This document shows positions 29,531 to 45,579 of a DNA stretch of 49,191 nt, in pieces. The notes beneath the pieces are model-generated. The model made no database searches, was not told the origin of the DNA, and was given only the letters and a program-made list of their open reading frames with translations. Source of the stretch: Rhodothermales bacterium (GTDB lineage Bacteria > Bacteroidota > Rhodothermia > Rhodothermales > VXPQ01). Each line of letters opens with the position of its first letter. The stretch's first letter is position 1. Position numbers and translations under genes: made by a program. The DNA is taken from assembly GCA_040904565.1 (NCBI GenBank), contig JBBDTI010000020.1, forward strand, positions 1 through 49,191, given 5' to 3'.

Positions 29531-30886
29531 ATGTCGAAGTTGTCGTTTCGCGGAACGGACTCCTCGCTCGAGGCCACGGGCCACCGGCCTGGGGATATCG
29601 GGAATGCAGCACCCGTCATGCGGCGCCCACGTCCACGCACGGTGATCGTCGGAGGCGGGATCAGCGGTCTCGCGGCCGGCTGTTTTCTGGACCGCACCGG
29701 CACGGAGATTCTCGTGCTCGAGGCATCCTCCCGAACAGGAGGCGTGATCGAGAGCCGTACCATCGACGGTCATCTGGTGGAACTAGGCCCGCAGCGAACG
29801 CGCCTGTCGAAACCGCTGCAACAGCTCGTCGAATGGCTCGGCATCAGCGATCGGCTCGTTACGGCCCCCGAGCTCCCGCTATATATCTATTCGCGGGGCC
29901 GGCTGCGGCAGGCGCCGCTGGACCTGCGCACGGCGCTCTCGACGGATCTCATCTCCTGGGCCGACCGGCTTCGCGTACTGATGGAACCGTTCACGGCCGG
30001 ACTCGACCCCGACGAGTCGGCGGCCGATTATTTCATCCGTAAGTTCGGGCGCGGAACGTACCGACGTGCCATCGCCCCCCTCTTCGGCGACCTGTACGGA
30101 TCGGACCCGGCCGAGATGCCCGCGCGACATGCCCTGGCGACCATGCTGCGGGCCCTCCGCATCGATGGCAGCCTCCTTCGGGTGCTGATCCAGGGGCTTC
30201 GCAGCGAGCGTCGACCGCCGGCCTGTTCGTTTTCGGGCGGACTCCAGACCCTGACCGATGCGATGGCCGCGCGCCTCGGCGAGCGCGTCCGCGCGCACGC
30301 CGCCGTACGGGCCATTTTTCGCGATGGACCGTATTTCCGGGTCGTCACCGACGAAGATGAGGTCCTGGCCGATCGGGTCGTGCTCTCCTGCCCGGCCGCA
30401 CCCGCCGCGCGGGCCACGGTCTCGCTCGACGCCGATCTATCCAACCGCCTGGCCGACCTCCGCTACAACACGTTCGCCGTCGTTCATCTCGAGAGCAACG
30501 CCACGTTTAAAGGAACGGGATACCAGTTCGCTCTAGAGACCGGTTACGCCACGCGGGGCGTTACGGCCAACGGCGCCCTGTTCGACCGCCCCGGCCTGTT
30601 CACGGCCTTCCTCGGCGGCGCGACGCACCAAGGGGTGACGCAGCTGTCGGAGGAGCATCTCGGAGCCATCGCCGCATCAGAGTTTCGCGCCGTGACGGGG
30701 TTCGACGCACGGCCGCTCGCCGTTCATCAGACGTACATGCCGGCCTGGGACGGTTCGTGGAACCGGTTGGATGATCTTCGTCTGCCCGACGGCGTCCACC
30801 TTTGCGCGAACTGGATCGGACGACCGGGAATCACCGGCCGCATCAACGAAGCCGCCGCGCTGACCCGGGAGCTCACGATGAGCTGA
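29531..30886 (+). CDS. hemY: HemY-type protoporphyrinogen/coproporphyrinogen oxidase (FAD)
   Basis: IVGGGISGLAA FAD motif, ELGP, GDLYGSDP, FSGGLQTL. RBS-like GGAGAGG before ATG 29531 (alternative 29618). Confidence 0.85.
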   Translation: MSKLSFRGTDSSLEATGHRPGDIGNAAPVMRRPRPRTVIVGGGISGLAAGCFLDRTGTEILVLEASSRTGGVIESRTIDGHLVELGPQRTRLSKPLQQLVEWLGISDRLVTAPELPLYIYSRGRLRQAPLDLRTALSTDLISWADRLRVLMEPFTAGLDPDESAADYFIRKFGRGTYRRAIAPLFGDLYGSDPAEMPARHALATMLRALRIDGSLLRVLIQGLRSERRPPACSFSGGLQTLTDAMAARLGERVRAHAAVRAIFRDGPYFRVVTDEDEVLADRVVLSCPAAPAARATVSLDADLSNRLADLRYNTFAVVHLESNATFKGTGYQFALETGYATRGVTANGALFDRPGLFTAFLGGATHQGVTQLSEEHLGAIAASEFRAVTGFDARPLAVHQTYMPAWDGSWNRLDDLRLPDGVHLCANWIGRPGITGRINEAAALTRELTMS

Positions 30887-31922
30887 CGGATGCCTCGTAC
30901 TCGAGGCGGTCGTTCAGGCAATACGCTCCGGGCCGGCATCGACAGGCCCTTCGCTCTACGGCGCACGCATTCTGTACGAGCTGCGCGAGAAGCATCACAA
31001 ACTGCGGGTCGTCATACGGGATCGGCACGCGGTGGAACGACACGCCCACCGAATCGGCGTCCTCCCGCAGATCCAGATCGAGTTCGACGAGCGTCTCGGA
31101 CTGTTCCTGCATGAAGCTGACGGGGACGACGACGACGCGCTCCGCCTCGACGTGCCTGACGACCTCGCCGATTTCCGGAAGCGTCCATTCTACGTCAGGT
31201 CGATTGTCGTGATTCTGGTATCCGAGCTCATAGTGCTCGACGCCCAGCCTTCGCGCCAGCTCTCTACAGTGATCCCGGACGTACAGGTCGTAGCGATTCC
31301 CCTCTTCCAGGTATTTGAGCGGCGTCCCGTGGGCTGAAAAGACGAGGCGCGTATCGACGCCGCCGAGATCGATCTCGGCCTCTTCGCAGTACATTCTAAC
31401 GGCACGAGTCCGAAGGATGGAATAATCGGGATGCCGATGCCACCCCGTAATCTCCGTCACGTCCGGGTGCCAGTCGAGAGCAGCCAGTGCGTCCTGAAGG
31501 CGCTCCAGCGCCATAATCGTGGTCGACGCCCCGCACAGCGGATACAACGGGAGTCCGACGAGCCGGTCGACCCCGGCGCGACACAGCGTGCGAACGGCAT
31601 CTACGATCGAGGGACCGGTGAACTGCATTCCGACGGCAACCCGCGCTTCGAATCCGCGCCGCCGCAGCGCTACGTCCAGCGCACGAGCCTGTGCCCTCGT
31701 CTGCTCTGCGAGCGGCGACGCCCCCATCCTCCGATAGTCTGCGACCAGCGCGGGGGCCCTTCGCTCGGCCAGCATGCGAGCCCGCCGGCGGCCGGCTTCG
31801 GCGTCGGCGGCATGTTCCAGCCGCATATTGGCGAGAAAGATGGCCTCCAGAAACGGTACGACCTCGTCCAATTCCGGTCGCTCGGGCTCTCCGAAGTTTA
31901 GCAGCAGAATTCCTGTCGTCAT
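30873..31922 (-). CDS. hemH: Ferrochelatase with C-terminal Cys cluster
   Basis: GILLLNFGEP, SPL, PLYP, FSAHGTP, YQN, W.LP, PVSF..EQSETL.ELD. Confidence 0.92.
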   Translation of the reverse strand: MTTGILLLNFGEPERPELDEVVPFLEAIFLANMRLEHAADAEAGRRRARMLAERRAPALVADYRRMGASPLAEQTRAQARALDVALRRRGFEARVAVGMQFTGPSIVDAVRTLCRAGVDRLVGLPLYPLCGASTTIMALERLQDALAALDWHPDVTEITGWHRHPDYSILRTRAVRMYCEEAEIDLGGVDTRLVFSAHGTPLKYLEEGNRYDLYVRDHCRELARRLGVEHYELGYQNHDNRPDVEWTLPEIGEVVRHVEAERVVVVPVSFMQEQSETLVELDLDLREDADSVGVSFHRVPIPYDDPQFVMLLAQLVQNACAVERRACRCRPGAYCLNDRLEYEASVSSS

Positions 31923-32076
31923 GCCGTCAACATACGGCACCGGACAGCAGATGAAAAAGGGGAAGCGACGGGGAAACGCGCACGGCTCGATCAGACGCGG
32001 GCTACGTACCGTTGGAGATTAACTCGACACACCGATTATATAATTTGTGTGAAGCCCCGATACTAGTTACACACGC

Positions 32077-32346
32077 ATGACTCACCACAAGCGATCAACG
32101 CCCATGCGCAACGCCTTCAGCAAAGAGCCCCTTCTGGATCTCCTGTCGCTCGCGGTCGAGCGACAGGTCATCGACGAGTGGACCGTCGCAGACCGCTATT
32201 TCGTGTTTCAGAGCGGCCCCTCGCGTTTCCACGTCCATCCTTCCGTCGTCGGCGAATTCCTCCAGAAACTCCTCGGTACGGATCGGAATGTCGCGACGAC
32301 CTCGAGGTTGTCGGACGCACCATCGAACCATCGTAAGGTAGCCTGA
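32077..32346 (+). CDS. Small hypothetical protein
   Basis: 89-aa ORF after an AT-rich promoter-like patch, filling the hemH-kinase gap; no recognisable motif. Confidence 0.5.
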   Translation: MTHHKRSTPMRNAFSKEPLLDLLSLAVERQVIDEWTVADRYFVFQSGPSRFHVHPSVVGEFLQKLLGTDRNVATTSRLSDAPSNHRKVA

Positions 32347-32439: not shown

Positions 32440-35400
32440 ATGATCGGTTCGGTCGTCTCCCATTATCACATCGTCGATGAGCTCGGGCGGGGCGGAATGG
32501 GCGTGGTATACCTGGCCGAGGATACCCGTCTCAGACGAACCGTCGCCCTGAAGTTCCTCGCCGATCACGGCGTCGCCGCCGAACAGGCTCGCGAGCGATT
32601 TATGACGGAGGCGCGGGCCGCCGCGGCCCTTAACCATACTAATATTGCCACGCTCTTTGATGTCGTCGAGGACGGTGACGCGCTGTTTATAGCGATGGAA
32701 TACGTCCATGGCAACGATCTGGGCGAACTCATCCACCGGCAGGAGCTTACCCCCGATCAGGCGATCGACTATGCCATTCAGATCGCGCGGGGGTTGGATC
32801 GCGCGCACGAAGCGGGAATCATCCACCGTGACATAAAGCCCGCCAATATCGCCGTCACGGTTCGGGGCGAGATAAAAATACTGGACTTCGGGCTTGCGAA
32901 GCTTACTGGAGCGATAAGCACCTCGCAGCCGGGCACGATGGTAGGCACGCCGGTTTATTCGAGTCCGGAGCAGATCGCGGGGGGAGAGATCGATGGTCGA
33001 TCTGACCTGTGGTCGCTCGGCGTGGTACTGTACGAGATGCTCACCTTCGAAAAACCCTTTAGCGGCGCGTACCGGGAAGCGGCATATTATGCTATTCTCA
33101 ACGTCGACCCCCCTAGCATCTCTTCGATCCGACCGGAGCTCGGAACGGCATTTGACGGCGTTGTTGGACGACTGCTGAACCGGGATCTCGCGCAGCGATA
33201 TCCCCGTGCAGGCGTTCTCATCGAGGACCTGGAGCAACTACGCGCCCCTGCTTCGTCCCCGTCCGCACCGGTATCTTCATCCGCGTCTCCTATCCCTTTC
33301 CCGCCCGGCCGCACGCCCTCTTCCGTGCGTGAAGAGCGCCGTCAGCTTACCGTAGTCTACGGAGAAATCGCGGGGTTCGGCGATCTGCTCCATGCCATGG
33401 ACCCGGAGGACGTGCTCGAACTGACTGACGTCTATCGATCCCTCTGGCAATCGCAGGTCGACCAGTTCGACGCGCTCCCCGGATCGACCACGCAGGGCGC
33501 CTATTATGCTTACTTCGGATATCCCACGGCGACGGAAAACGACGCGAGCCGGGCCATTCGCTTCGGCCTGGCCTTCAATAATTTGGTGGCCGGACTCAGG
33601 AAACAGGGACCCGATAACGCTACCCCCCCGGTACGCATCGGCATTCATACGGGAACGGCTATCGTAGGAGAAGACGGCGGAACGTATCAGGTGCATGGAA
33701 GCATCGGTCACGTTGCGGCGAGAATCACCCAAGTCGGTTCATCGGGCTGCGTCGTTGTCGGCGCAACTACCTCCCGCCTCGTTCAGGGCGACTTCGAGCT
33801 CGAACCGCTCGGTGCCGGTGCGGTTCAAGGCTTTTCGGAGCCGGTCGAGATCTTCAAGGTCGTTCGGGAGACCGGAGGACACTCCCGCCTCGATTTTGTC
33901 GATGCCGCCGACCTCTCCCCTCTCGTAGGCCGGGATACCGAGATGGCGATGCTCCGACAGCGCTGGAAACAGGCACAGTCAGGTCAGGGCTCCGTCGTCC
34001 TCATCGCCGGTGAAGCAGGGCTCGGAAAGTCACGTCTGGTAGACACCTTCGTCCGAGACGTTGCGACCGACCGTCGCGCATGGCACACTATCCTATACTG
34101 TTCGTCCTTCGAATCAAGTAGTGCGCTTCATCCCCTCACCGCACACCTCAAATACCACGTCCGTCCACCCGGCTACGGCGAGGATGAAGAGGATATGGAA
34201 GCGACCCGATTCGATCGGCTTCGTCGGTATCTGTCCGGTACCGGACTCTCGGACGATGCTGATACGGCGCTTCTGGCGGACCTGCTGAACATCCCGATCC
34301 CGGACGGTCGGCAGCCTCCAGCGCTCGCGGCGGCGGAACGGCAGCGTCGCACGATGATCGCGCTCTTCCACCTCCTGACCGCCCGTTGCCGCGACACGGC
34401 GGGCATGATCGTCATGGAGGATCTTCACTGGGCCGATCCATCGACGCTGGAATGGATGGAAATGCTGGCTGCGCAGACACCCGCCCGACCCCTCCTCGTG
34501 ATTTGCACGTCCCGCTCGCAGTTTCGCCCCGGATGGCACGGCAAGCCCCGAACGGTCGAAATTACGCTGAATCGGCTCGATCCTGAAGATCTGGTCACGA
34601 TCTCCGAGCACAAGAGCCGCAAGAAACTGCCCCGGGAAATTCTGGATCAAATTATCGAAAAAACGGACGGCATCCCCCTGTTCACGGAGGAGCTGACCCA
34701 GATGATTCTCGAGTCGGATATCTTGATGGACCGCGGCGAATACTTCGAGCTAACCGGACCGATACCGCATCATGCGATTCCGTCCACCCTCCAGGGCTCC
34801 CTCGTGGCACGCCTCGACCGGCTTCCCGCTGAAAAATCCATCGCTCAAATCGGCGCCGTGCTGGGTAGAGAGTTTTCCTTCGAGATGCTGCGGACGGTAT
34901 CCGGCGAGGACGAAGACGTCCTCGCCCGAGCGATCGAGCGGCTGGTCGAGGCAGAATTGATCTATCAGCGCGGGTTCATTCCAGATGCCAGCTTCATATT
35001 CAAGCACGCGCTCATTCAGGATGCTGCCTACCAGACGCTGGTTCGAAAGCGAAAGAAGGCCCTTCACGGAAAGGTGGCTCGCGCCCTGGAAGACGTGCCG
35101 ACCGAATCCCATCCGGAGCTCATCGCATACCATTACACCCAGGCCGATCAAGCCGCCCGAGCCATCCCATACTGGCTCCAGGCCGGGCAGCGTGCCATGG
35201 CGCGCTATGAAAATATGGAAGCCGTCCAGCACCTGTCTGAAGGACACCGTCTCGTGGCCTCGCTGCCTCCAGGAAGCGAGCGCGACCTGACGGAGCTCAG
35301 CCTGCTGGTTCCGCTTGGCCACGCCCTCAACATGACGAAAGGCTGGTGGGCACCGGAAGGCGAGGCCATTTTTTCCCGTGCGGCCGAGCTCTGCCAGGTC

Positions 35401-36447
35401 ATCGACGAAGTGGAGCCGCGCGTGCTGACCTTGTTGGGACTCGGATCGACGTCGATGATTCGCGGCGATTATGGAAACGCACGCGACGCCGCGCTCAAGT
35501 TACTTGAGGCGGTTCGAGGCACGGAAATGGAAGACCTGTCGGTCGTCGGTGACGCCCTGCTTAGCGCTTATTACTTATTCCGTGGGGAGTTTGAGGCGTC
35601 TATCGCTCACGCCGACGACGTCGTACGCACCTACGATCCGGTTCGGCACGACCCCCTTCGAAAGTTCGGCTCCGGGTCCCTGCACAACAGCTGCCGCCTG
35701 TACAAACTGCTCGCTACGCAGCTGATGGGGTACCCCGAGCAGGCTTGCGTACAGGCCGCCGAAATGCTCGACGTAGTGAAGGCGGGCGATTACCACTTCG
35801 ACCTGTACATGGCCTATCTGTATCGTGGACTTACCCTTTTGACGGGGCGGTCGTGGGAGGCGTGTCGAGACACCATGGAAGAATACCTGAACGTCGGCCG
35901 GGAGTATGGCGACCCGTTCCCTATACTGATCACGACGATCGTGCACCACCTCGCCCTGCGGGACGAAGCCGACGAAATCACGTTTCGTAGTGCCAAACCG
36001 ATGCTGGATCAGCTGCAGGGCGCCGGCTATGGGTTGGGGTGTTCGCTTCTTCTAGGCGAATATGCGGCTGGACTCCTACATTATGGGCAGGTAGACGGTG
36101 CCCGGTCGGCACTTGACGAAGCGTTCCGGCACATAAAACGGGTCGGGGCGGAAATCTGGGAAGCCGAGCTGCATCGCCTGAAGGGCGATATCCTGCTCGA
36201 AACCGACCACCCGGCGGATGAGATCGAAGCCTCTTACCAGCACGCGCTTCAGATTGCCAGAAGACAGGGAGCCAGGCTACTGGAGCTGCGATCGGCAACA
36301 AGCCTTGCCCGATTTCGGACCGGTCAGCAGCGCAGCGAAGAGGCGCACGACGTGCTGGCCGGCATCTATCACGAATTCACGGAGGGATTCGATGAAGTGG
36401 ACCTGCGAGAGGCGAGAAACCAACTTGACGCTTTTCTCATGTCGTAG
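32440..36447 (+). CDS. Ser/Thr kinase fused to a class III cyclase-like domain, STAND/AAA_16 ATPase and TPR-like tail
   Basis: GRGGMGVVY, VALK, HRDIKPAN, DFG; RRQLTVV..YFGYP..RIGIHTG; GEAGLGKS, EDLHWAD, FKHALIQDAAY; ELRSATSLAR. ATG 32440. Confidence 0.92.
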   Translation: MIGSVVSHYHIVDELGRGGMGVVYLAEDTRLRRTVALKFLADHGVAAEQARERFMTEARAAAALNHTNIATLFDVVEDGDALFIAMEYVHGNDLGELIHRQELTPDQAIDYAIQIARGLDRAHEAGIIHRDIKPANIAVTVRGEIKILDFGLAKLTGAISTSQPGTMVGTPVYSSPEQIAGGEIDGRSDLWSLGVVLYEMLTFEKPFSGAYREAAYYAILNVDPPSISSIRPELGTAFDGVVGRLLNRDLAQRYPRAGVLIEDLEQLRAPASSPSAPVSSSASPIPFPPGRTPSSVREERRQLTVVYGEIAGFGDLLHAMDPEDVLELTDVYRSLWQSQVDQFDALPGSTTQGAYYAYFGYPTATENDASRAIRFGLAFNNLVAGLRKQGPDNATPPVRIGIHTGTAIVGEDGGTYQVHGSIGHVAARITQVGSSGCVVVGATTSRLVQGDFELEPLGAGAVQGFSEPVEIFKVVRETGGHSRLDFVDAADLSPLVGRDTEMAMLRQRWKQAQSGQGSVVLIAGEAGLGKSRLVDTFVRDVATDRRAWHTILYCSSFESSSALHPLTAHLKYHVRPPGYGEDEEDMEATRFDRLRRYLSGTGLSDDADTALLADLLNIPIPDGRQPPALAAAERQRRTMIALFHLLTARCRDTAGMIVMEDLHWADPSTLEWMEMLAAQTPARPLLVICTSRSQFRPGWHGKPRTVEITLNRLDPEDLVTISEHKSRKKLPREILDQIIEKTDGIPLFTEELTQMILESDILMDRGEYFELTGPIPHHAIPSTLQGSLVARLDRLPAEKSIAQIGAVLGREFSFEMLRTVSGEDEDVLARAIERLVEAELIYQRGFIPDASFIFKHALIQDAAYQTLVRKRKKALHGKVARALEDVPTESHPELIAYHYTQADQAARAIPYWLQAGQRAMARYENMEAVQHLSEGHRLVASLPPGSERDLTELSLLVPLGHALNMTKGWWAPEGEAIFSRAAELCQVIDEVEPRVLTLLGLGSTSMIRGDYGNARDAALKLLEAVRGTEMEDLSVVGDALLSAYYLFRGEFEASIAHADDVVRTYDPVRHDPLRKFGSGSLHNSCRLYKLLATQLMGYPEQACVQAAEMLDVVKAGDYHFDLYMAYLYRGLTLLTGRSWEACRDTMEEYLNVGREYGDPFPILITTIVHHLALRDEADEITFRSAKPMLDQLQGAGYGLGCSLLLGEYAAGLLHYGQVDGARSALDEAFRHIKRVGAEIWEAELHRLKGDILLETDHPADEIEASYQHALQIARRQGARLLELRSATSLARFRTGQQRSEEAHDVLAGIYHEFTEGFDEVDLREARNQLDAFLMS

Positions 36448-36566
36448 CGGATGGATTGGAGTTGTCCCGCTTTCGTAAACGGTCGATGGATTCGGCTTCG
36501 AGTCCATCAATCTTCCTGCGGGTCGATCCAAGCCATCACGCACCTGACCCACTATGAGACGAACCG

Positions 36567-36998
36567 ATGGGTACGCTAAAGAACCTCGTGCAGAAGATCG
36601 TTTTCATCTTTCTGCCCAGCGAGCAAAAGGAAGTAATCGTGACGCTGCAGGACTATGCGGAGTCGTTCATGGCGTTCGAGCCTGAAGGGGTTCTGGGGTA
36701 TTTCGACCTCCCCATGACGTTTCTATCCGACGACGGCACCGTCATCTTCACCAGCCGACAGGAGATTGCGACGTACGTATCCGGGTTGATGCACGATCTG
36801 AAGGAGGCGGAGTATGCCAGGGATAAGCTCTCGAAATTCCGTATCAACGCCCTGTCCCCCAACGTAGCCGTTACCTCGTTCCACCTCGTTCGTGTGAACA
36901 GGTCCGGCGAATCGATCGGTCGGTTTCGCGCCGCCTATACCTGGCGGAAGTCCGACGGCGCCTGGAAGCTCGTCATCGCCGTCCTCATGACCAGGTAG
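36567..36998 (+). CDS. NTF2/SnoaL-like fold protein
   Basis: Y.ESF...YF..P pattern and C-terminal Y.WRKSDGAWKLV strand typical of NTF2-like folds. Confidence 0.7.
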   Translation: MGTLKNLVQKIVFIFLPSEQKEVIVTLQDYAESFMAFEPEGVLGYFDLPMTFLSDDGTVIFTSRQEIATYVSGLMHDLKEAEYARDKLSKFRINALSPNVAVTSFHLVRVNRSGESIGRFRAAYTWRKSDGAWKLVIAVLMTR

Positions 36999-37075
36999 GT
37001 GCCTACCTTCTGCCCGCTCGTCGACGATATCGGCGGTCCCCGACAACGTATCCTACCATCCGGCGCAGGCCGACC

Positions 37076-39016
37076 ATGACGAATCCACGACGCCTACTCC
37101 TGCTCGGAGTATTGCTCCTGCTACTTCCCCTCCTCGCCGGCCATCTATTTTTTTATTTCTTCGTAACGCGATCGATCCTGCTTCCTCCGTACGAATCCGT
37201 GGACGTTCGGTACCAATCCGAGCAGGGTTGGACGGACGATGAGAGACAGTGGTTCTACCATGAAACGCAGGGGGGAGCGTTTGAGCTGATCGTCGAATAC
37301 GACTGGTTGATGGCACTCGAACAGCCGACGCTTCCGCCGCTGTTCCTGGGACCCGTACCTCGTCTGATGGACGAATCCTATATCACCCGGTTCGGATTCT
37401 TACCAAACCCGAAAACGCACTACGATCCGGCCGGCATCGATATCGATCGCGTACGCGAACCGGCGTACGCGATCGCGCAGGGCGGCGTCGAATCCACGCT
37501 GATCAACAACCCCGACCGACTGCCGGTCGGATTCGCGCGCGACTCTACGTACGTCCTCCCCACCACGGGGGAACGGCTCGACGTGATCGGATTCACCTGC
37601 GCCGCGTGTCACGTTGGACAGGTCAACTTTCAGGGTACCGGGATACGGATCGACGGCGGACCGGCCATGACGAACCTGACGAAGTTTCAACTGGCCGTCG
37701 GTTACGCGCTCGCCCTGACGTATTACGTGCCGACGCGCTTCGATCGGTTCGCCACCGCCGTTCTGGATCCGCATCACTCGGCCGCCGCACGCACGGGTCT
37801 GCGCGTCAAGCTCAAGGCGCTGATCGAGGAAGGCGAGACCCTCCAGAAAGCCGTCGAGAGCCGGCACATCTATTCCACACGCGACGGATTCGGTCGACTC
37901 GATGCACTCGGACGTATCGGCAACTTTGTGTTTGCCGAGGAGCTCGACGATCGAAATTTGTCGCTCTCAAACGCGCCCGTGAGCTTTCCGCCCATCTGGG
38001 ACACGCCCTGGTTCGAGTGGGTGCAGTACAACGGATCCATCATGCGCCCGATGATCCGCAACGCGGGAGAGGCGATGGGCGTCTTCGCCCGCGTCAACTT
38101 TCAAGACCTGGACGATCCGGCACGGCTCTTCTCCTCCACCGTCAAGTTCCTCAATCTCTTCGAGATGGAATCCCTGATTCGCGGCGATGCACCGTTCGAG
38201 GGACTCCGTGCTCCCGTCTGGCCCGAAGACGTGCTTCCGCCTGTAGATCGAGCGAAGGCGGCACGCGGCGCCCGGCTATACGAGCAACATTGCCAGCCGT
38301 GTCACCTTCCCGCCCCAACACCGTCGTCTCCGCTCTTCACCGACGATAGATATTGGACGCCGGAGGACGCCTACGGCAACCGCTACCTTAAGCTGAACAT
38401 GAAGAACATCTACCAGATCGGTACCGACTCGCTCCAGGCGTCCAACTTCGCCCGACGCATCGTCGAAGTCGGGACGCTGGGCGAGAAGTTCAGAGATCAG
38501 CTCAGCGAGGGCGGCGGGGGCCTCTTGATGGCCGGGGAAGCCCTCCCCTTCCTCGTTCAGAATACGATCGAAAAAGGGTATGAGGACCTCGGGATTACCC
38601 CGGCCGACTCGTCGCTCCGCGATACGCTCAACGGGCTTCGTCCGAACAGCATACGCGCCCCGCTCGCCTATAAGGCGCGCCCGCTCGATGGCGTGTGGGC
38701 CACGGCCCCGTACCTGCACAACGGATCGGTCCCGACACTCTACCAGCTGCTCGGCCCCTGGGAAGAGCGCGACCGGACATTCTTTGTCGGAAGCAGGGAA
38801 TTCGACCCGCTTCACGTCGGACTGCAAACGACCGGCAGCAAGGGGGCCTTCAAGTTGGATACCACCCTCCCGGGCAATTCGAACCGAGGGCATCAGTTCG
38901 AAGGCGACTTCGACCCGGACACGGTCGATTGGTGGGGCCTCGATGAGGGCATCATCGGACCGACACTTGCCGACGACGACCGCTGGGCCATCATCGAGTT
39001 CCTCAAAACGCTGTAG
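37076..39016 (+). CDS. Membrane-anchored RoxA-like / di-heme cytochrome c peroxidase-like protein
   Basis: N-terminal TM; QGW..ERQWFYHETQG; CAACH and CQPCH; YKARPLDGVWATAPYLHNGSVPTL; GNSNRGH; IEFLKTL. Confidence 0.85.
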   Translation: MTNPRRLLLLGVLLLLLPLLAGHLFFYFFVTRSILLPPYESVDVRYQSEQGWTDDERQWFYHETQGGAFELIVEYDWLMALEQPTLPPLFLGPVPRLMDESYITRFGFLPNPKTHYDPAGIDIDRVREPAYAIAQGGVESTLINNPDRLPVGFARDSTYVLPTTGERLDVIGFTCAACHVGQVNFQGTGIRIDGGPAMTNLTKFQLAVGYALALTYYVPTRFDRFATAVLDPHHSAAARTGLRVKLKALIEEGETLQKAVESRHIYSTRDGFGRLDALGRIGNFVFAEELDDRNLSLSNAPVSFPPIWDTPWFEWVQYNGSIMRPMIRNAGEAMGVFARVNFQDLDDPARLFSSTVKFLNLFEMESLIRGDAPFEGLRAPVWPEDVLPPVDRAKAARGARLYEQHCQPCHLPAPTPSSPLFTDDRYWTPEDAYGNRYLKLNMKNIYQIGTDSLQASNFARRIVEVGTLGEKFRDQLSEGGGGLLMAGEALPFLVQNTIEKGYEDLGITPADSSLRDTLNGLRPNSIRAPLAYKARPLDGVWATAPYLHNGSVPTLYQLLGPWEERDRTFFVGSREFDPLHVGLQTTGSKGAFKLDTTLPGNSNRGHQFEGDFDPDTVDWWGLDEGIIGPTLADDDRWAIIEFLKTL

Positions 39017-39117
39017 TGCCTCCGTTCCGTTCATTGCCTGCACCGCACGCAACGCGTCACCGTCCGTCTCCAACTGATCCGCCGCACCTTCTCGGCCCTT
39101 TCATCACGGAACGACCC

Positions 39118-40425
39118 ATGAGCACCGCTTCCACCGTTTCGCCGTCAGATCCATCCCACTCGACCCTCGACCCGGACTGGCCGCCGGCTCCGCCTCCGAA
39201 GGGACGCGCCGCACGGATCCTGCAGTATCTCATCGAGAAGCGCATCGATACCCTTTACTTCGTCCTGCGCGCCGTGAAACCCATTCTGGGACTTCCTAAG
39301 GGAGGGCCGGTCTTCGTCACGCGATTCAAGGACGTCCAGGAAGTATTGCAGCGGCCGGAGATCTTCGGGGTCATGTACGCGCCCATGATCGACAAGTCGG
39401 TCGGCAAGTTTATGCTCGCCCACGACGCCTCGGTCTACAATCAGCGCGACAAGGGGCTGATGCGCAGCCTGATCCAGCAATCCGACCTGCCGGCTATTCG
39501 TACGAGCGTCGCACGAATCGCTGACCGATGCATCGACGACGGGACCCGCCCCGACGGCACGCTGGAGGTCGTCTCCCAGCTTTCGCGGAGGGCGCCCATC
39601 CTTCTTACGGGCGAGTACTTCGGCTTTCCAGGTCCGGACCTCGAATCCATGTTCCGGTGGTCGCGGGCCACCCAATACGACATGTTCCACAACCAGAACA
39701 TGTCGGGGAAAGTCCACGACGACAACTTGAAGGCGGGGCGGGAAATGCGTGCGTATCTATCGGACGAGCTGCTGCCGCAGCGCAGAGCGGAGCTCGCCCA
39801 GGACCCGTCCCTCGACGACGTGGTGTCGCGACTGCTCAAGTTGGAACTACCTGAGAGCGTGGGCTTCGGGGAGGAGCAGATATTGCCAAACATCATGGGG
39901 CTGCTCGTCGGCGGTGTGGAAACGACCTCTCAGGCCGTCGTCCAGATTCTCGACCAGCTGTTCCGGCGACCCAAGGCGCTCGAAGGTGCCCGGCGGGCGG
40001 CACGCCACGACGACGACCGCCGCGTATTCAGATACTGCTGGGAGGCGCTTCGCTTCAATCCTATCAATCCGTTCGTGATGCGGCAGTGCAACCAGGATTA
40101 CCTCGTCGCGGCCGGGACCTTCCGCAACAAGAAGATCAGACAAGGCCGCGTCGTACTTGTCGGGACGCGCTCGGCCATGAAGGACGGTCGCGAGCTACCA
40201 CGTCCGCATACATTCAGCGTCGACCGGCCCGACTACCACTACATGCACCTCGGATACGGATCCCACCGCTGCCTGGGGGATCAGGTGAGCAAAGTACAGG
40301 TCCCCCAGATTGTCAAGACATTGCTCTTGAAGGAAAACCTCCGTCGTGCACCGGGCGCGGCTGGACGCATCGATTATGGGGACGGACCGTTTCCGGAGCG
40401 GTTCACGGTCACTTTCGATCGCTGA
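39118..40425 (+). CDS. Cytochrome P450
   Basis: I-helix GGVETTS, K-helix EALR, heme ligand HLGYGSHRCLG. ATG 39118 preferred over GTG 39016. Confidence 0.93.
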   Translation: MSTASTVSPSDPSHSTLDPDWPPAPPPKGRAARILQYLIEKRIDTLYFVLRAVKPILGLPKGGPVFVTRFKDVQEVLQRPEIFGVMYAPMIDKSVGKFMLAHDASVYNQRDKGLMRSLIQQSDLPAIRTSVARIADRCIDDGTRPDGTLEVVSQLSRRAPILLTGEYFGFPGPDLESMFRWSRATQYDMFHNQNMSGKVHDDNLKAGREMRAYLSDELLPQRRAELAQDPSLDDVVSRLLKLELPESVGFGEEQILPNIMGLLVGGVETTSQAVVQILDQLFRRPKALEGARRAARHDDDRRVFRYCWEALRFNPINPFVMRQCNQDYLVAAGTFRNKKIRQGRVVLVGTRSAMKDGRELPRPHTFSVDRPDYHYMHLGYGSHRCLGDQVSKVQVPQIVKTLLLKENLRRAPGAAGRIDYGDGPFPERFTVTFDR

Positions 40426-40441
40426 AAGAGGACGAATTACG

Positions 40442-42616
40442 GTGTCTGCCCCCCCTTCCTGCATCCATCCCGTATCCGTCGCCGACCTGGCCGAGGCTCG
40501 CGCGCAGGGCGTTCCCGACAGGGGATCGCAGCAAGTGTTGGAAGCAGAACGCGCGTACGTCGATGCCTGGCGGACGCGGCGCGGTCTTCCACCTACCGAG
40601 CAGCTTAGCCCCTCGGCACTTTGCATCTCCGGCGGCGGCATCCGATCGGCGTCGTTCGCCGCCGGCGTGCTTCAGGCCCTGGCCGCCGCAGACCTGCTAA
40701 AGACGTTCGACTACCTCTCAACCGTGTCCGGCGGTGGATACATCGCCTCGTCGCTCACGTGGCTCTTGCATGATTCCGGACGGACATCCGTCGGTACGGC
40801 AAGTGCTGCGGCATGCGGCACGGCATGCGGACTGGGACCGGACGACTTTCCCTATGGAACGGAGAACCCGTCAGCCCGAGATGATGCGCCCGACAGGCAC
40901 CGCGACGGGGCGGCGCAGTTCAGGCGGCTCTCCTATCTGAAAACGCACGGGGCCTACCTCACTCCGGGTAACGGGATCGGCTTGGCATCGCTGGTTGCCG
41001 TACTGCTGCGGGGAGCGTTTCTCAGTCTGCTGGCGGCCATCCCTTTGACCGCGACCGCGTTTGCCGGCGTAATCCTTCTCTCTACCACGCTGACGCAACA
41101 TCCTACGGAAGGCTTCGCATTCATCTGGAAGCTGGGCCTGGGTGTGATGGGCTTTCTGATCGTATCGGCACTACTCTATGCCGTGGGCAGCGTTTTAGAC
41201 CGTCCGCTCGCCGAGACGAAGTCGAAATATGCATTCCGGCGACGCTACGATACGTATGCTGGATCGCTTCTGACCGTCGCCGCTGCACTCGGCGCCATCA
41301 GCTTCATTCCAAACGTGCACGTTCACGTAGGCACGGGGGCGCTCGCCGGTGGTCTCGCTGCCGCCGGTCTCGTTTTCGTCCATGCGTCCCGGAAAATGTC
41401 CAGGCGTTTTTTGAGGACCCTCGCTCAGACAGGCTCGCTGCTGATCCTCTATGCCGTCCTCGTCCTGTCCTTTCACCTCGCGACCTGGTCCGTCGACATT
41501 CTCAACACACCATCCGGCATCCTCCGATGGGTGCCCGTCGGATTGCTCTTGGTCTCGCTGCTGTGCGGGCGATTGGTAAACATCAACATCATCTCCATGC
41601 ACCGGTACTACCGCGATCGTCTGATGGAGACGTTCTTGCCGGACGATGCGTCGGAACTCGACGACGCGACCGGGGCCTCACCCCGCGCAAATACGGCCCG
41701 CCTGAGCAGCATCCTCAGCGCGTCGTCTCCGACCGGGCCCTATCACATCCTCAACACGAACCTGAACCTCGTCGGGGCTCGCTCGAGAGTACGACGAATC
41801 CGAGGGGGCGACAGCTTCATTCTAACCCCACTGTACTGCGGAAGCAATGAAACGGGATGGAGGCGGACGGATGAATTCCTGCGGAACGGGCTTACCCTGG
41901 CCACCGCCATGGCCGTATCGGGGGCGGCCGTCGAACCGGACGCGGGCGTGGCTGGTCGGGGGCCCGCCCGCGATCCGAGCGTGGCAGCGCTGATGACCCT
42001 CCTAAACCTGACGCTCGGTTTCTGGATACCTCATCCGCTGAAGGAACAGCGGCGCCTCGCCTTCCCGAACCATTTTAATCCAGGCTTCCGTTCCTTTCTC
42101 GCCAGCGCGTACGACGGACGTCGCACCTACCTCGAACTCGGAGATGGCGGCCATTTCGAGAACCTCGGTCTCTACGAGATGATCAGGCGCCGTGTGCGCC
42201 TCGTGGTCGTGAGCGACGCGGGAGCCGACCCCGAATACCGGTTCAACGACCTCCTCAATGCCATGCAGCGGGTCCAGGCCGATTTCGGCACAAAGATTCT
42301 CTTCACGACGGGTGGCGCGCCCGTGAACCTGCATGCTCTGTTCGACGTGGATGGTGCGCATCATCCCTCGTGTGGCCACGTGATCGGCACCATCGCCTAT
42401 CCGGACCGTTCGACGGGCGCTATCGTGCTCGTCAAGGCATCGATGATTAATGACGTGGACGACGCCCTGCTCACCTACAAGCATGACCACCCCGCATTTC
42501 CCCACGAAAGCACGATGCAGCAGTGGTTCGACGAAACGGATATAGATGCCTATCGGCGGCTGGGCTACGAGATCACGCGCCGGATGATCGACGCCGTCGG
42601 CGTCAATAATTTCTGA
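40442..42616 (+). CDS. Multi-pass membrane patatin/cPLA2-like phospholipase
   Basis: SGGGIRSA oxyanion loop, YLSTVSGGGY nucleophile, DGGHFENLG, FPHEST; central TM helices. GTG 40442 follows a purine-rich RBS. Confidence 0.85.
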   Translation: MSAPPSCIHPVSVADLAEARAQGVPDRGSQQVLEAERAYVDAWRTRRGLPPTEQLSPSALCISGGGIRSASFAAGVLQALAAADLLKTFDYLSTVSGGGYIASSLTWLLHDSGRTSVGTASAAACGTACGLGPDDFPYGTENPSARDDAPDRHRDGAAQFRRLSYLKTHGAYLTPGNGIGLASLVAVLLRGAFLSLLAAIPLTATAFAGVILLSTTLTQHPTEGFAFIWKLGLGVMGFLIVSALLYAVGSVLDRPLAETKSKYAFRRRYDTYAGSLLTVAAALGAISFIPNVHVHVGTGALAGGLAAAGLVFVHASRKMSRRFLRTLAQTGSLLILYAVLVLSFHLATWSVDILNTPSGILRWVPVGLLLVSLLCGRLVNINIISMHRYYRDRLMETFLPDDASELDDATGASPRANTARLSSILSASSPTGPYHILNTNLNLVGARSRVRRIRGGDSFILTPLYCGSNETGWRRTDEFLRNGLTLATAMAVSGAAVEPDAGVAGRGPARDPSVAALMTLLNLTLGFWIPHPLKEQRRLAFPNHFNPGFRSFLASAYDGRRTYLELGDGGHFENLGLYEMIRRRVRLVVVSDAGADPEYRFNDLLNAMQRVQADFGTKILFTTGGAPVNLHALFDVDGAHHPSCGHVIGTIAYPDRSTGAIVLVKASMINDVDDALLTYKHDHPAFPHESTMQQWFDETDIDAYRRLGYEITRRMIDAVGVNNF

Positions 42617-44364: not shown

Positions 44365-45579
44365 TCAGTTGCTGGCAACCGTTTCGCGCCACTCATTCAT
44401 CTTCGATACAGCGTCGTGAAGATCGCCGCCGGCGACGTGGACATATTGCATCGTAGTGGATATGTCGGCGTGGCCCGCGAGCTTCTGCACGACCGGCACC
44501 GGCACGCCCCGCTGGACCATCCACGTGATGAACGTGTGTCGGAGGGAATGGAAGGTGAGATCGTCGGAGAGCTGCGCCAGCTTGACGTATTTCTTAAACC
44601 GCTTGCTGACGTAGGAGGCATCCAGCCTGTCGCCGTTCTTCTCGCCCTTGAATACATAGTCGTCGGCCTCCGACGTGCGGGCCTCGTGCAGCGTCCAGAG
44701 CACGTCCAGGCACGCCCCGGAGATCGGCACGGTACGTTCATGGTGAGATTTCGGGATGAAGCCGTCTGAGCGCCTCACGACGATCTGGCCGGCGTCGAAG
44801 TTGATCCACGACCAGCGCATGTGAACGATCTCCGTCTCACGGAGCCCGGTCGATACGGCAACCTCAATAACGTCCAGGAGCCAGCGTATCGCGCCCTCGT
44901 GCAGCCCTGTATGCCTCACGGCCTCCCCGTTGACGATGCCCGCCTCCTTCATCATTACGTCGGCCTCGATCGCACGGCGGAGCCGCTGGTACTGCTCGTG
45001 CGTGAAGAACGACTTCTCTTTCTTGGCGAGCTTGGGCCGCTCGACCTTCACGGTAGGCTCGTGCTGCATCCATCCCTGCTCGCGGCACCACGAGAAGAAC
45101 GCACGGATGCGCGTGTAATAGGTCTGGCGAGTCGCTGAGGAGAGTTTTTTCTTCTTGGCCTTCGCCTTTCCTTGCCTTGACTTCTTCGGAGCGTTCAGGA
45201 AGTTTTCAATGTGACGGGCCTCGACGTGCGAGAGAAGCGATCCGGCCGGGAGTGAATCCACGAACAGGTTCAGCGTCGACTCGTCGGCCTTGACGGTCTT
45301 CGGCCTCCGCGTAACCTTCCGCTTCTTCACGTACTTCTCGGCCGCTTCCGCGACGGAGACGCCTTTTCGCGGTACGGGATCAACCCAAGGGTCGAACAGC
45401 CCGAGCGATTCCTTTTTCTCATAGTCGACGAGCCGCCGGTTCGCAACGCGCTCGTCTTTCGTCCGCAGCGTCACGTACTTCTCGTTCGGCTGCCGAAGCG
45501 GGTCATAAAAGACGGCCGCGTATCCGGTGAAAATCTTCTCTCCGCCCTTGTAGCGGTAGCGTTCGCGCAGCTTTGCCAT
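44365..45579 (-). CDS. Tyrosine recombinase/integrase
   Basis: TGLRETE (R), PKSHHER (K), FHSLRH (HxxR), LAGHA (H), TTMQY (Y); N-terminal arm-binding and SAM-like regions. Confidence 0.95.
   Translation of the reverse strand: MAKLRERYRYKGGEKIFTGYAAVFYDPLRQPNEKYVTLRTKDERVANRRLVDYEKKESLGLFDPWVDPVPRKGVSVAEAAEKYVKKRKVTRRPKTVKADESTLNLFVDSLPAGSLLSHVEARHIENFLNAPKKSRQGKAKAKKKKLSSATRQTYYTRIRAFFSWCREQGWMQHEPTVKVERPKLAKKEKSFFTHEQYQRLRRAIEADVMMKEAGIVNGEAVRHTGLHEGAIRWLLDVIEVAVSTGLRETEIVHMRWSWINFDAGQIVVRRSDGFIPKSHHERTVPISGACLDVLWTLHEARTSEADDYVFKGEKNGDRLDASYVSKRFKKYVKLAQLSDDLTFHSLRHTFITWMVQRGVPVPVVQKLAGHADISTTMQYVHVAGGDLHDAVSKMNEWRETVASN

Follow-up and report, generated by a model that had tools for sequence, protein, structure and literature searches.

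The stretch of DNA analysed here (the window) is a whole 49,191-bp contig, JBBDTI010000020.1, of the 4.0-Mb, 95-contig assembly of a Rhodothermales bacterium (GCA_040904565.1). Between positions 32440 and 42616 of the forward strand it carries five open reading frames (ORFs), all co-oriented, which a preliminary description made from the sequence alone had proposed to be a kinase-gated module for lipid oxygenation. The five ORFs were found where that description had placed them, and their spacing matched the gaps of about 16 to 120 bp that it had given. The genes and one further feature are as follows (lengths in amino acids, aa).

32440..36447, forward strand: gene 1, a regulator candidate, 1335 aa
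36567..36998, forward strand: gene 2, an NTF2-like protein (DUF6841), 143 aa
37076..39016, forward strand: gene 3 (P0003), a di-haem c-type protein of the NF040606 (FadCcp-type) family, 646 aa
39118..40425, forward strand: gene 4, a cytochrome P450, about 435 aa from its probable ATG; the ORF opens at GTG 39016
40442..42616, forward strand: gene 5, a cPLA2-like patatin phospholipase, about 724 aa from its probable GTG; the ORF opens at 40346
42590..42604, forward strand: a terminator-like hairpin at the end of gene 5, a weak consensus match that is not significant on its own

The P450 most likely starts at ATG 39118, because its relatives (408-430 aa) align from residue 36 of the long ORF. The probable GTG of gene 5 at 40442 has AAGAGGA upstream, and lipase homologues align from about residue 37. 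With these starts the successive gaps between genes 1 and 5 measure about 119, 77, 101 and 16 bp. A scan of the region returned two promoter-like sites against 3.2 expected in shuffled sequence, with the reservation that the sigma-70 consensus may not suit this phylum, and ten terminator-like sites against 8.5 expected; none of the ten falls in the four intergenic gaps of the module.

The di-haem protein encoded by gene 3 matches the model NF040606 ('di-heme-cytochrome C peroxidase') over its entire length (model positions 1-524 of 524) at 501.8 bits, the cut-off being 150, and none of the 14 control genomes contained a match to this model. The protein had at first been called RoxA-like, and it does possess a RoxA-like_Cyt-c motif and two CXXCH motifs; yet the RoxA, RoxB and RoxC models score only 45.2, 50.8 and 49.6 bits (cut-offs 1000, 900 and 900), and do so locally, over a MauG-type motif of about 40 residues (residues ~521-566), so that NF040606 describes it far better. 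Both haem motifs, CAACH (C175/C178/H179) and CQPCH (C406/C409/H410), are invariant in the family alignment, as are H548 in PYLH548NGSVP and H606. Across the family, two CxxCH motifs occur in all 114 ORFs of at least 520 aa and PY(L/F)HNGSVP in 111 of the 114. Hydropathy and the predicted model agree on an N-terminal hydrophobic helix (residues 3-32), which is preceded by two Arg residues. Attachment of c-type haem takes place in the periplasm and so implies export. RoxA is the only clearly related solved structure (4b2n; phmmer E 1e-7, Foldseek E 3e-5, VIA Z 10.6 over 385 residues), MauG and CcpA giving VIA Z scores of 6.6 and 6.2 against the P0003 model.

A guide to what such a protein might do comes from Pseudomonas aeruginosa. 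In the parts of the paper drawn on here, PA2077 is a 10S-dioxygenase and PA2078 a 7,10-diol synthase that convert oleate to oxylipins; both are presented as periplasmic, RoxA-related di-haem proteins of a 'FadCcp' subfamily (a term that our literature search met in this one paper only), PA2077 alone is toxic unless a hydroperoxide-converting partner is co-expressed, and PA2078 is proposed to be detoxifying (PMC4496055). When the 301 genomes of the family to which locus L074 belongs were searched with P0003, a homologue was found in 135. Genome G214 (6.32 Mb) carries a tandem di-haem pair of 624 and 634 aa, which agrees with the PA2078/PA2077 entries in Table 1 of the portion of that paper used here in lengths, gene order and His positions (130/365 and 130/375/553), and departs from them in one motif His, at 544 rather than 543, and in the haem-motif letters of the 634-aa protein (PMC4496055). 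Identity between the two proteins is 44%, against 43.4% printed in the same part of the source for PA2078 and PA2077. Both match NF040606 end to end, at 491.5 bits (624 aa) and 530.4 bits (634 aa), far above the cut-off, and the idea that the Pseudomonas enzymes lie outside this model was therefore dropped. P0003 aligns over its full length with the PA2078-like 624-aa protein (28% identity, E 2e-54) and in two blocks with the 634-aa protein (E 3e-33). Besides the pair, G214 (L177, L178, L179) has two more proteins that match NF040606, at 594.5 and 453.4 bits, the former of which groups in the tree with Pseudomonas proteins linked to mini-catalases.

Judged by its sequence, the window di-haem protein belongs, as a distant relative, to the family that includes the only bacterial di-haem oxylipin enzymes so far characterised. 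Like PA2077 and PA2078 it belongs to NF040606, falls in the range of 624-646 aa, and has two CXXCH motifs, PY(L/F)HNGSVP and an aligned C-terminal GH histidine. By analogy, both systems would have an exported or periplasmic di-haem protein and a hydroperoxide-forming step that is genetically tied to a second haem enzyme. The differences are equally plain: identity is only 27-28%; the role of second enzyme falls in the window to a cytoplasmic P450 with an NTF2 partner and in Pseudomonas to a second periplasmic di-haem paralogue; and the window module adds a lipase and a kinase-type regulator. The tandem G214 pair and the window protein also lie in different parts of the di-haem tree, where the placement of the pair is unsure because it sits on a long branch.

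That gene 4 encodes a P450, as the preliminary description had it, is borne out by Pfam (p450, 58.3 bits; a divergent bacterial-type member) and by the presence of GGVETT in the I-helix (299-304), of EALR as the EXXR motif (343-346) and of the Cys pocket HLGYGSHRCLG (C419), all invariant or nearly so in the family alignment. By hydropathy the protein has neither a signal peptide nor a hydrophobic segment, which, with the N-terminal membrane helix of the di-haem protein, agrees with the earlier caveat that the haem c protein should be periplasmic and the P450 cytoplasmic. The nearest solved relatives are generic bacterial P450s acting on polyketides, sterols and cyclic dipeptides, not on fatty acids. 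The NTF2 assignment of gene 2 likewise stood (DUF6841, PF20795, 49.2 bits against a gathering score of 27); the protein has no predicted membrane segment and no export signal, and its gene is conserved beside the di-haem/P450 pair in L002, L003, L093 and L138/L140. Two proteins, P0126 (584 aa) and P0127 (602 aa), are P450-NTF2 fusions in which both Pfam domains are present and the NTF2 part lies at the P450 C-terminus; residues 1-436 of P0127 are 68% identical to the window P450 and residues 474-599 are 31% identical to the window NTF2 protein (E 3e-23). Such gene fusion supports a joint function of the two proteins. A complex prediction for the P450 (residues 35-469) with the NTF2 protein scored 0.00 in a run without controls and counts neither for nor against binding.

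Gene neighbourhoods were compared in two sets of 80 loci, one of genome loci fetched with a 26-sequence di-haem alignment and one of metagenome loci fetched with a 26-sequence alignment of the P450, whose family has 379 hits (51-68% identity among the best 120 of the 379), among them sequences from Neptunomonas japonica, Echinimonas agarilytica and Bradyrhizobium. The search for di-haem homologues gave 1479 hits. A di-haem homologue is present in 51 of the 80 P450-anchored loci, and lies within 500 bp of the P450 in 48 of them, counts that are inflated by near-identical loci (L100-102, L138-140, L150-153 and L164/166/167). Neither a di-haem nor a cyclooxygenase (COX)-like partner was found in 15 of the 80, only five of which have at least 2.5 kb on both sides. 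The pair occurs in three arrangements, with the di-haem gene upstream and co-oriented, divergent, or downstream (P450 first). A lipase homologue directly follows the P450 in L003, L098, L103, L107, L133 and L172, kinase/cyclase and NTF2 genes follow it in permuted order in L138-140, and in L163 the P450 is followed by a kinase. Full-length homologues of gene 1 accompany the module in L002 (49% identity), L093 (59%) and L138-140 (45%). Within the window's own order, 4 of 41 genomes score above the NF040606 cut-off, and two of these carry the module: kinase, NTF2, di-haem and P450 genes are present both in G003, where the proteins are 59, 58, 73 and 78% identical to those of the window and the module is cut by a contig end, and in G023 (= L002). 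In the di-haem tree the window protein belongs to a clade of five, all P450-linked, with support of 100. The clustering exceeds chance: 51 of the 80 P450-anchored loci, fetched independently, have the two genes side by side, and the remaining three turn up with the pair in several lineages. The neighbourhood analysis that the preliminary description had suggested, for recurring P450, patatin or catalase-like partners, was positive. A DUF1304 membrane protein (146.5 bits) is encoded between P450 and di-haem genes in L160 (12050-12415) and after the P450 gene in L155 (6259-6627).

These loci bear directly on whether the five genes have a common function at all. A tyrosine integrase gene and a fall in GC content just downstream, together with a patchy distribution among relatives (the four genomes of 41 above), might suggest neighbours brought together by chance or by shared horizontal transfer. 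The adjacency of the pair nonetheless survives both rearrangement and wide taxonomic spread, a P450-NTF2 fusion exists, and the same four genes stand in permuted order in L138-140. Chance adjacency is largely refuted by the P450-anchored loci, and we regard an absence of common function as extremely unlikely.

The P450-anchored loci also revealed an alternative partner. In 14 of the 80, a gene for a COX-like An_peroxidase (144.7 bits in Pfam) is found, in every case at most 157 bp from the P450, and in none of the 80 do the di-haem and COX-like partners occur together. Among solved structures, the representative at L173:6473-8092 is most closely related to PGHS-1 and PGHS-2, nearly over its full length (E 6e-57), and the motif F(N/S)x(L/V)YRWH occurs in 11 of 15 COX-like ORFs. 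YRWH is known as the motif that bears the tyrosyl radical in cyclooxygenase, alpha-dioxygenase and linoleate diol synthase. In a FastTree phylogeny of 59 P450s (midpoint root, no bootstraps) the COX-linked P450s form one starred clade (98), and the di-haem versus COX label needs a single change on the tree. Accessory genes are shared between the two versions of the module. Both encode, beside the P450, a secreted protein of about 200 aa that has a signal peptide and matches nothing in Pfam or NCBIfam (six di-haem and seven COX loci by clustering, 15 loci by tblastn, e.g. L164:9261-9869); the window lacks it. SnoaL-type NTF2 genes are likewise seen with both, and patatin genes are found in COX-type loci as well. 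Mutually exclusive partners beside the same P450 family, with shared accessory genes, are what would be expected if the di-haem protein and the COX homologue did the same job. Upstream of the COX-like/P450 pair of L173, at 2-2500, there is a second, larger An_peroxidase (832-aa open frame, 312 bits).

The suggestion that a di-haem enzyme here takes the place of lipoxygenase or cyclooxygenase therefore gained from the exclusive distribution of the two partners (51 against 14 loci) and from homology to the oleate-diol synthase; its claim to novelty did not last, a c-type di-haem protein being already published as an oxylipin dioxygenase in the sections of the Pseudomonas study cited above (PMC4496055). 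On this evidence we lean, with moderate confidence, towards reading the five genes as a fatty-acid oxygenation (oxylipin-type) module built around the conserved di-haem/P450 pair.

The lipase would fit such a module. Patatin and cPLA2 enzymes share a GGGxR oxyanion motif, a nucleophile Ser motif and the Asp of a DGG/DGA motif. Gene 5 (Pfam Patatin, 33.6 bits) has SGGGIRS at 95-101, TVS128GG as the nucleophile motif, with Thr for the first Gly, and D600GG, each of them conserved without exception in the 34 aligned homologues. The ten best Foldseek matches of its predicted model (predicted local distance difference test, pLDDT, 82.8) are all human cPLA2 (GIVA and GIVD; best 1cjy), with a probability of 1.00, E-values of 1.6e-7 to 6.5e-3 and template modelling (TM) scores of about 0.33-0.41, so the cPLA2-like label given initially was apt. 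What that label overlooked is a set of six membrane helices (~213-410), seen in both hydropathy and model, inserted between the catalytic Ser and Asp. A Pfam scan of the lipase found no C2 domain, and phmmer against solved structures returned nothing meaningful. Just past the lipase gene of two di-haem/P450/lipase modules (L103:7230-7757 and L107:4619-5197) lies a gene for a PlsY-type glycerol-3-phosphate acyltransferase (121 bits for the L107 copy, which was the one scanned).

It may be asked whether the substrate is a fatty acid or some other lipid, such as a polyisoprenoid, a carotenoid, a quinone side chain or a xenobiotic alkene, which the di-haem protein would cleave as RoxA cleaves poly(cis-1,4-isoprene) and whose fragments the P450 would tailor. 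RoxA, like the window protein a double-size di-haem enzyme of the CCP/MauG type, is the only clearly related solved structure, and the solved relatives of the P450 have polyketides, sterols and cyclic dipeptides as substrates, not fatty acids. Identity to RoxA in the structural alignment is 20%, however; the RoxA, RoxB and RoxC models match over their ~40-residue motif only, at 45-51 bits against cut-offs of 900-1000; and the window offers no rubber-degradation context. The recurrent neighbours are acyl-lipid hydrolases and the PlsY-type acyltransferase, and the exchangeable partner is COX-like. Oxidative cleavage or tailoring of a lipid other than a fatty acid thus seems to us improbable.

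Beyond the pairing with P450, the di-haem family keeps characteristic company. Within two genes of 126 di-haem ORFs, taken from the union of both samples and hence with P450s over-represented by design, we counted 45 P450s, 13 cyclase-TPR proteins, 12 catalase-like proteins, 11 cytochrome c-containing proteins of about 475 aa, nine patatins, seven kinase/cyclase proteins, five Hydrolase_4 and three Abhydrolase_3 proteins and two DyP peroxidases (called by TIGR01413 at 106.8 bits). The catalase-like neighbours are mini-catalases of about 380 aa (12 loci) with conserved distal His and proximal Tyr. A single sequence retrieved nothing among solved structures; an 11-sequence profile matched best PDB 3e4w (3e-14), which we take to be a mycobacterial catalase-related protein, and in fourth place the coral allene oxide synthase 1u5u (1e-7). 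Going by these matches, the recurrent company of the family is second haem enzymes of kinds that handle fatty-acid hydroperoxides, together with acyl-lipid hydrolases. Some family members are themselves enlarged. P0033 (953 aa) has a GST C-terminal domain ahead of its di-haem part, and P0121 (1066 aa) an N-terminal part of about 400 aa with no Pfam match. The contig of P0033 is 20,686 long, as is the one that carries the P450 P0156. In Bradyrhizobium and other Alphaproteobacteria, di-haem ORFs of about 920-960 aa (L040-L042, L046, L051, L054, L059, L060, L062, L065) have an unexplained N-terminal extension of about 300 aa, with the proviso that longest-ORF starts may be too early; a cyclase-TPR gene lies directly before them, and a Hydrolase_4 esterase and an MCP chemoreceptor gene often lie after.

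Such neighbours could also be read as a system for the repair or detoxification of membrane lipid peroxides. The di-haem protein would then be a lipid-hydroperoxide peroxidase of the periplasmic leaflet, the lipase would excise oxidised acyl chains, the P450 and NTF2 protein would dispose of them, and the kinase-STAND protein would sense oxidative stress. Both the name of the family and its fold, that of the di-haem cytochrome c peroxidase/MauG superfamily, speak for this possibility, as do the peroxide-handling haem proteins found beside di-haem genes elsewhere (catalase-like, DyP, An_peroxidase) and the detoxifying role proposed for PA2078 in the parts of the source used here (PMC4496055). 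But the characterised relatives, according to the same parts of the paper, make hydroperoxides and diols from free oleate and do not only reduce (PMC4496055). The alternative COX-like partner, moreover, has in YRWH the Tyr-radical signature of a dioxygenase, not of a scavenger. A repair function therefore appears to us rather unlikely.

Gene 1 encodes a Ser/Thr kinase domain (residues 9-221; Pkinase, 176 bits), a cyclase-homology domain (299-466; Guanylate_cyc, 52 bits), an AAA_16 STAND-type ATPase (494-688) and C-terminal TPR. It had been labelled a STAND kinase, which holds for Pkinase, AAA_16 and TPR and misses the cyclase-homology domain. In that domain Glu, Gly and His occupy what we take, from class III motifs read by eye, to be the positions of the two metal-binding Asp residues and the catalytic Asn, and it may be a pseudo-cyclase. 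The whole protein matches TIGR03903, 'TOMM kinase/cyclase fusion', end to end at 585.9 bits, which is below the cut-off of 705.75. This match, the VIA Z of 6.6 to MauG and weak matches of the P450 to cyclodipeptide- and ribosomally synthesized and post-translationally modified peptide (RiPP)-associated P450 models would accord with a pathway that modifies peptides or proteins in the manner of RiPP or MauG systems. Enzymes of the MauG di-haem type introduce cross-links between side chains of proteins, and P450s do so in RiPPs. The clustered loci, however, show no recurrent gene for a precursor peptide, a cyclodehydratase or a peptidase, and the 89-aa ORF upstream of the module (32077-32346) has no Pfam match and is a singleton in the locus clustering, belonging to no recurrent cluster. 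With the lipases and the COX-like alternative partner left unexplained as well, we judge a peptide-modifying pathway very unlikely.

A part in the response to phage had been raised too. In a PADLOC scan of the five proteins only the kinase domain of gene 1 was matched, by generic kinase models (PD-T4-6 and mad6), and genes 2-5 gave no match; with no system-specific match, this role found no support and phage defence was rejected.

The genes flanking the module are unrelated to it: a divergent ferrochelatase, an amine oxidase-like, an OmpA-like and a tyrosine integrase gene, with molybdenum-cofactor genes, a MATE transporter and others further upstream. The ferrochelatase gene (30873-31940, reverse strand, 226 bits) diverges from the module, which encodes two haem proteins; it was excluded because it is not conserved beside the module in L002. 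The integrase gene (44365-45579, reverse strand; Phage_integrase, 123.5 bits) lies 1.7 kb downstream of the module, and GC content drops from about 0.62 to 0.55-0.57 from 42 kb to the end of the contig. The region downstream may be the edge of an integrated element; a tRNA scan of the window found none, and hence no attachment site was identified for the integrase.

If the five genes do form a fatty-acid oxygenation module, it might work as follows, although we infer the substrate, the order of the steps, the topology, the product and the regulation alike. The cPLA2-like lipase, anchored by its six helices, would free an unsaturated fatty acid from an inner-membrane phospholipid. The membrane-anchored, periplasm-facing di-haem protein would dioxygenate it to a hydroperoxide, as PA2077 does with oleate. 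The lipophilic product would cross the membrane to the cytoplasm, where the P450, with the NTF2 protein, would convert it to a stable diol, epoxy-alcohol or hydroxylated product, and the kinase/cyclase-homology/STAND protein would sense or control the pathway. The toxicity of PA2077 without its partner, as given in the part of the study used here, offers a reason for the tight linkage of a dioxygenase with a second enzyme (PMC4496055).

Several observations, besides the inflated locus counts mentioned above, weigh against this interpretation. P450 genes occur in only three of the 80 di-haem-anchored loci (L002 in Rhodothermales, L003 in Verrucomicrobia and L004 in Pseudomonadales), which hold an NTF2 gene in two cases, a full-length kinase/cyclase homologue in one and a lipase in five (L003, L013, L032, L055, L063); the P450-linked di-haem proteins are moreover scattered over the di-haem tree, forcing at least 14 changes. 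The pairing is thus not a property of the whole di-haem family. All five genes stand together only in the window, L003 and L093 being cut by contig ends. The P0003 model is of moderate quality (pLDDT 73.6, predicted TM score 0.79, residues 266-333 below 50). Since the P450 has no export signal and the di-haem protein is matured in the periplasm, the two steps would be separated by the membrane and the intermediate would have to cross it, which for a fatty acid is plausible; by the positive-inside rule, the catalytic halves of the lipase would face the cytoplasm. In the P450 the acid-alcohol pair that is classical for O2-activating monooxygenases, (G/A)xETT, is intact, and ETT is retained in di-haem-linked and COX-linked family members alike. 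Hydroperoxide-rearranging P450s of the CYP74, CYP8A and CYP5A type are not known to have this I-helix pair. The window P450 may thus be a monooxygenase of the ordinary kind and not a hydroperoxide isomerase, and no ferredoxin or reductase recurs in the examined loci. Finally, only adjacency points to regulation by gene 1, the 'kinase-gated' part of the original proposal.

The arrangement has parallels in eukaryotic systems. The fungal dioxygenase-P450 fusions (linoleate diol synthases, Ppo and DOX-AOS), as described in the portion of a review used here, follow the same logic of a dioxygenase joined to a hydroperoxide-transforming P450 (PMC13049297). The sister loci of the window P450 resemble them in having a COX-like An_peroxidase with YRWH directly beside the P450, and the Cys pocket of the window P450 is of the bacterial HxCxG type that the same portion notes in the fungal fusion partners (PMC13049297). 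The window differs from the fusions in its c-type di-haem dioxygenase and lack of an An_peroxidase, in having separate genes with products that the membrane is predicted to keep apart, and in keeping the acid-alcohol pair. The animal cascade of cPLA2, COX or lipoxygenase (LOX) and P450 (TXAS, PGIS or CYP epoxygenase) shows the same release-oxygenate-tailor arrangement, and the sister modules use a true COX homologue; in the window the lipase has a six-helix membrane insert instead of a C2 domain, and the oxygenase is non-homologous. A third likeness, to the catalase-related allene oxide synthase and lipoxygenase systems (coral 1u5u/3dy5, bacterial 3e4w), belongs to the di-haem family, whose members adjoin similar ~380-aa proteins in 12 loci, rather than to the window, where a P450 is the partner; upstream, a di-haem protein stands as the oxygenase where those systems have a lipoxygenase.

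In our literature searches, which covered sources other than subscription journals and supplements, we found no description of a di-haem/P450 pair or of adjacent bacterial COX-like and P450 genes, and the di-haem oleate-diol synthase is described, in the parts of the papers found, for P. aeruginosa only. The portion drawn on here of a 2026 review of dioxygenase-P450 pairs covers just one prokaryotic dioxygenase and no dioxygenase-P450 pair from bacteria (PMC13049297). The earlier view that the combination is undescribed thus stands for the di-haem/P450 module and falls for the di-haem oxylipin dioxygenase, already reported in the sections of the Pseudomonas paper used here (PMC4496055); what appears to be new is the partnership of the di-haem protein with a P450. 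To judge from the genes that it contains and from the recurrence of the core pair in many bacteria, the locus probably encodes a bacterial pathway to oxygenated fatty acids that has so far gone undescribed. A bolder proposal, possible but doubtful in our view, is that it represents a widespread bacterial counterpart of the eicosanoid cascade, in which a membrane-embedded cPLA2-like lipase, an interchangeable di-haem or COX oxygenase and a dedicated P450-NTF2 pair would make a specific signalling oxylipin across the inner membrane, to be read or gated by a kinase/pseudo-cyclase/STAND receptor; the COX-P450 partnership of animals and fungi would then have a bacterial precedent in separate, adjacent genes.

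Bacterial oxylipin biology rests on very few characterised systems. If our interpretation is correct, the di-haem family would be the hub of a large group of lipid-oxygenation modules spread widely over the taxa, in Rhodothermales, Verrucomicrobiota, Pseudomonadales, Bradyrhizobium, Acidobacteriota and others, and in the company of one P450 family a c-type di-haem protein and a cyclooxygenase homologue would be able to replace each other in function. The bacterial COX-like genes that adjoin P450 genes would, with them, be a candidate ancestor of the fungal fusion enzymes, and the modules would offer cultivable, non-pathogenic hosts and new enzymes for the regio-specific oxygenation of fatty acids.

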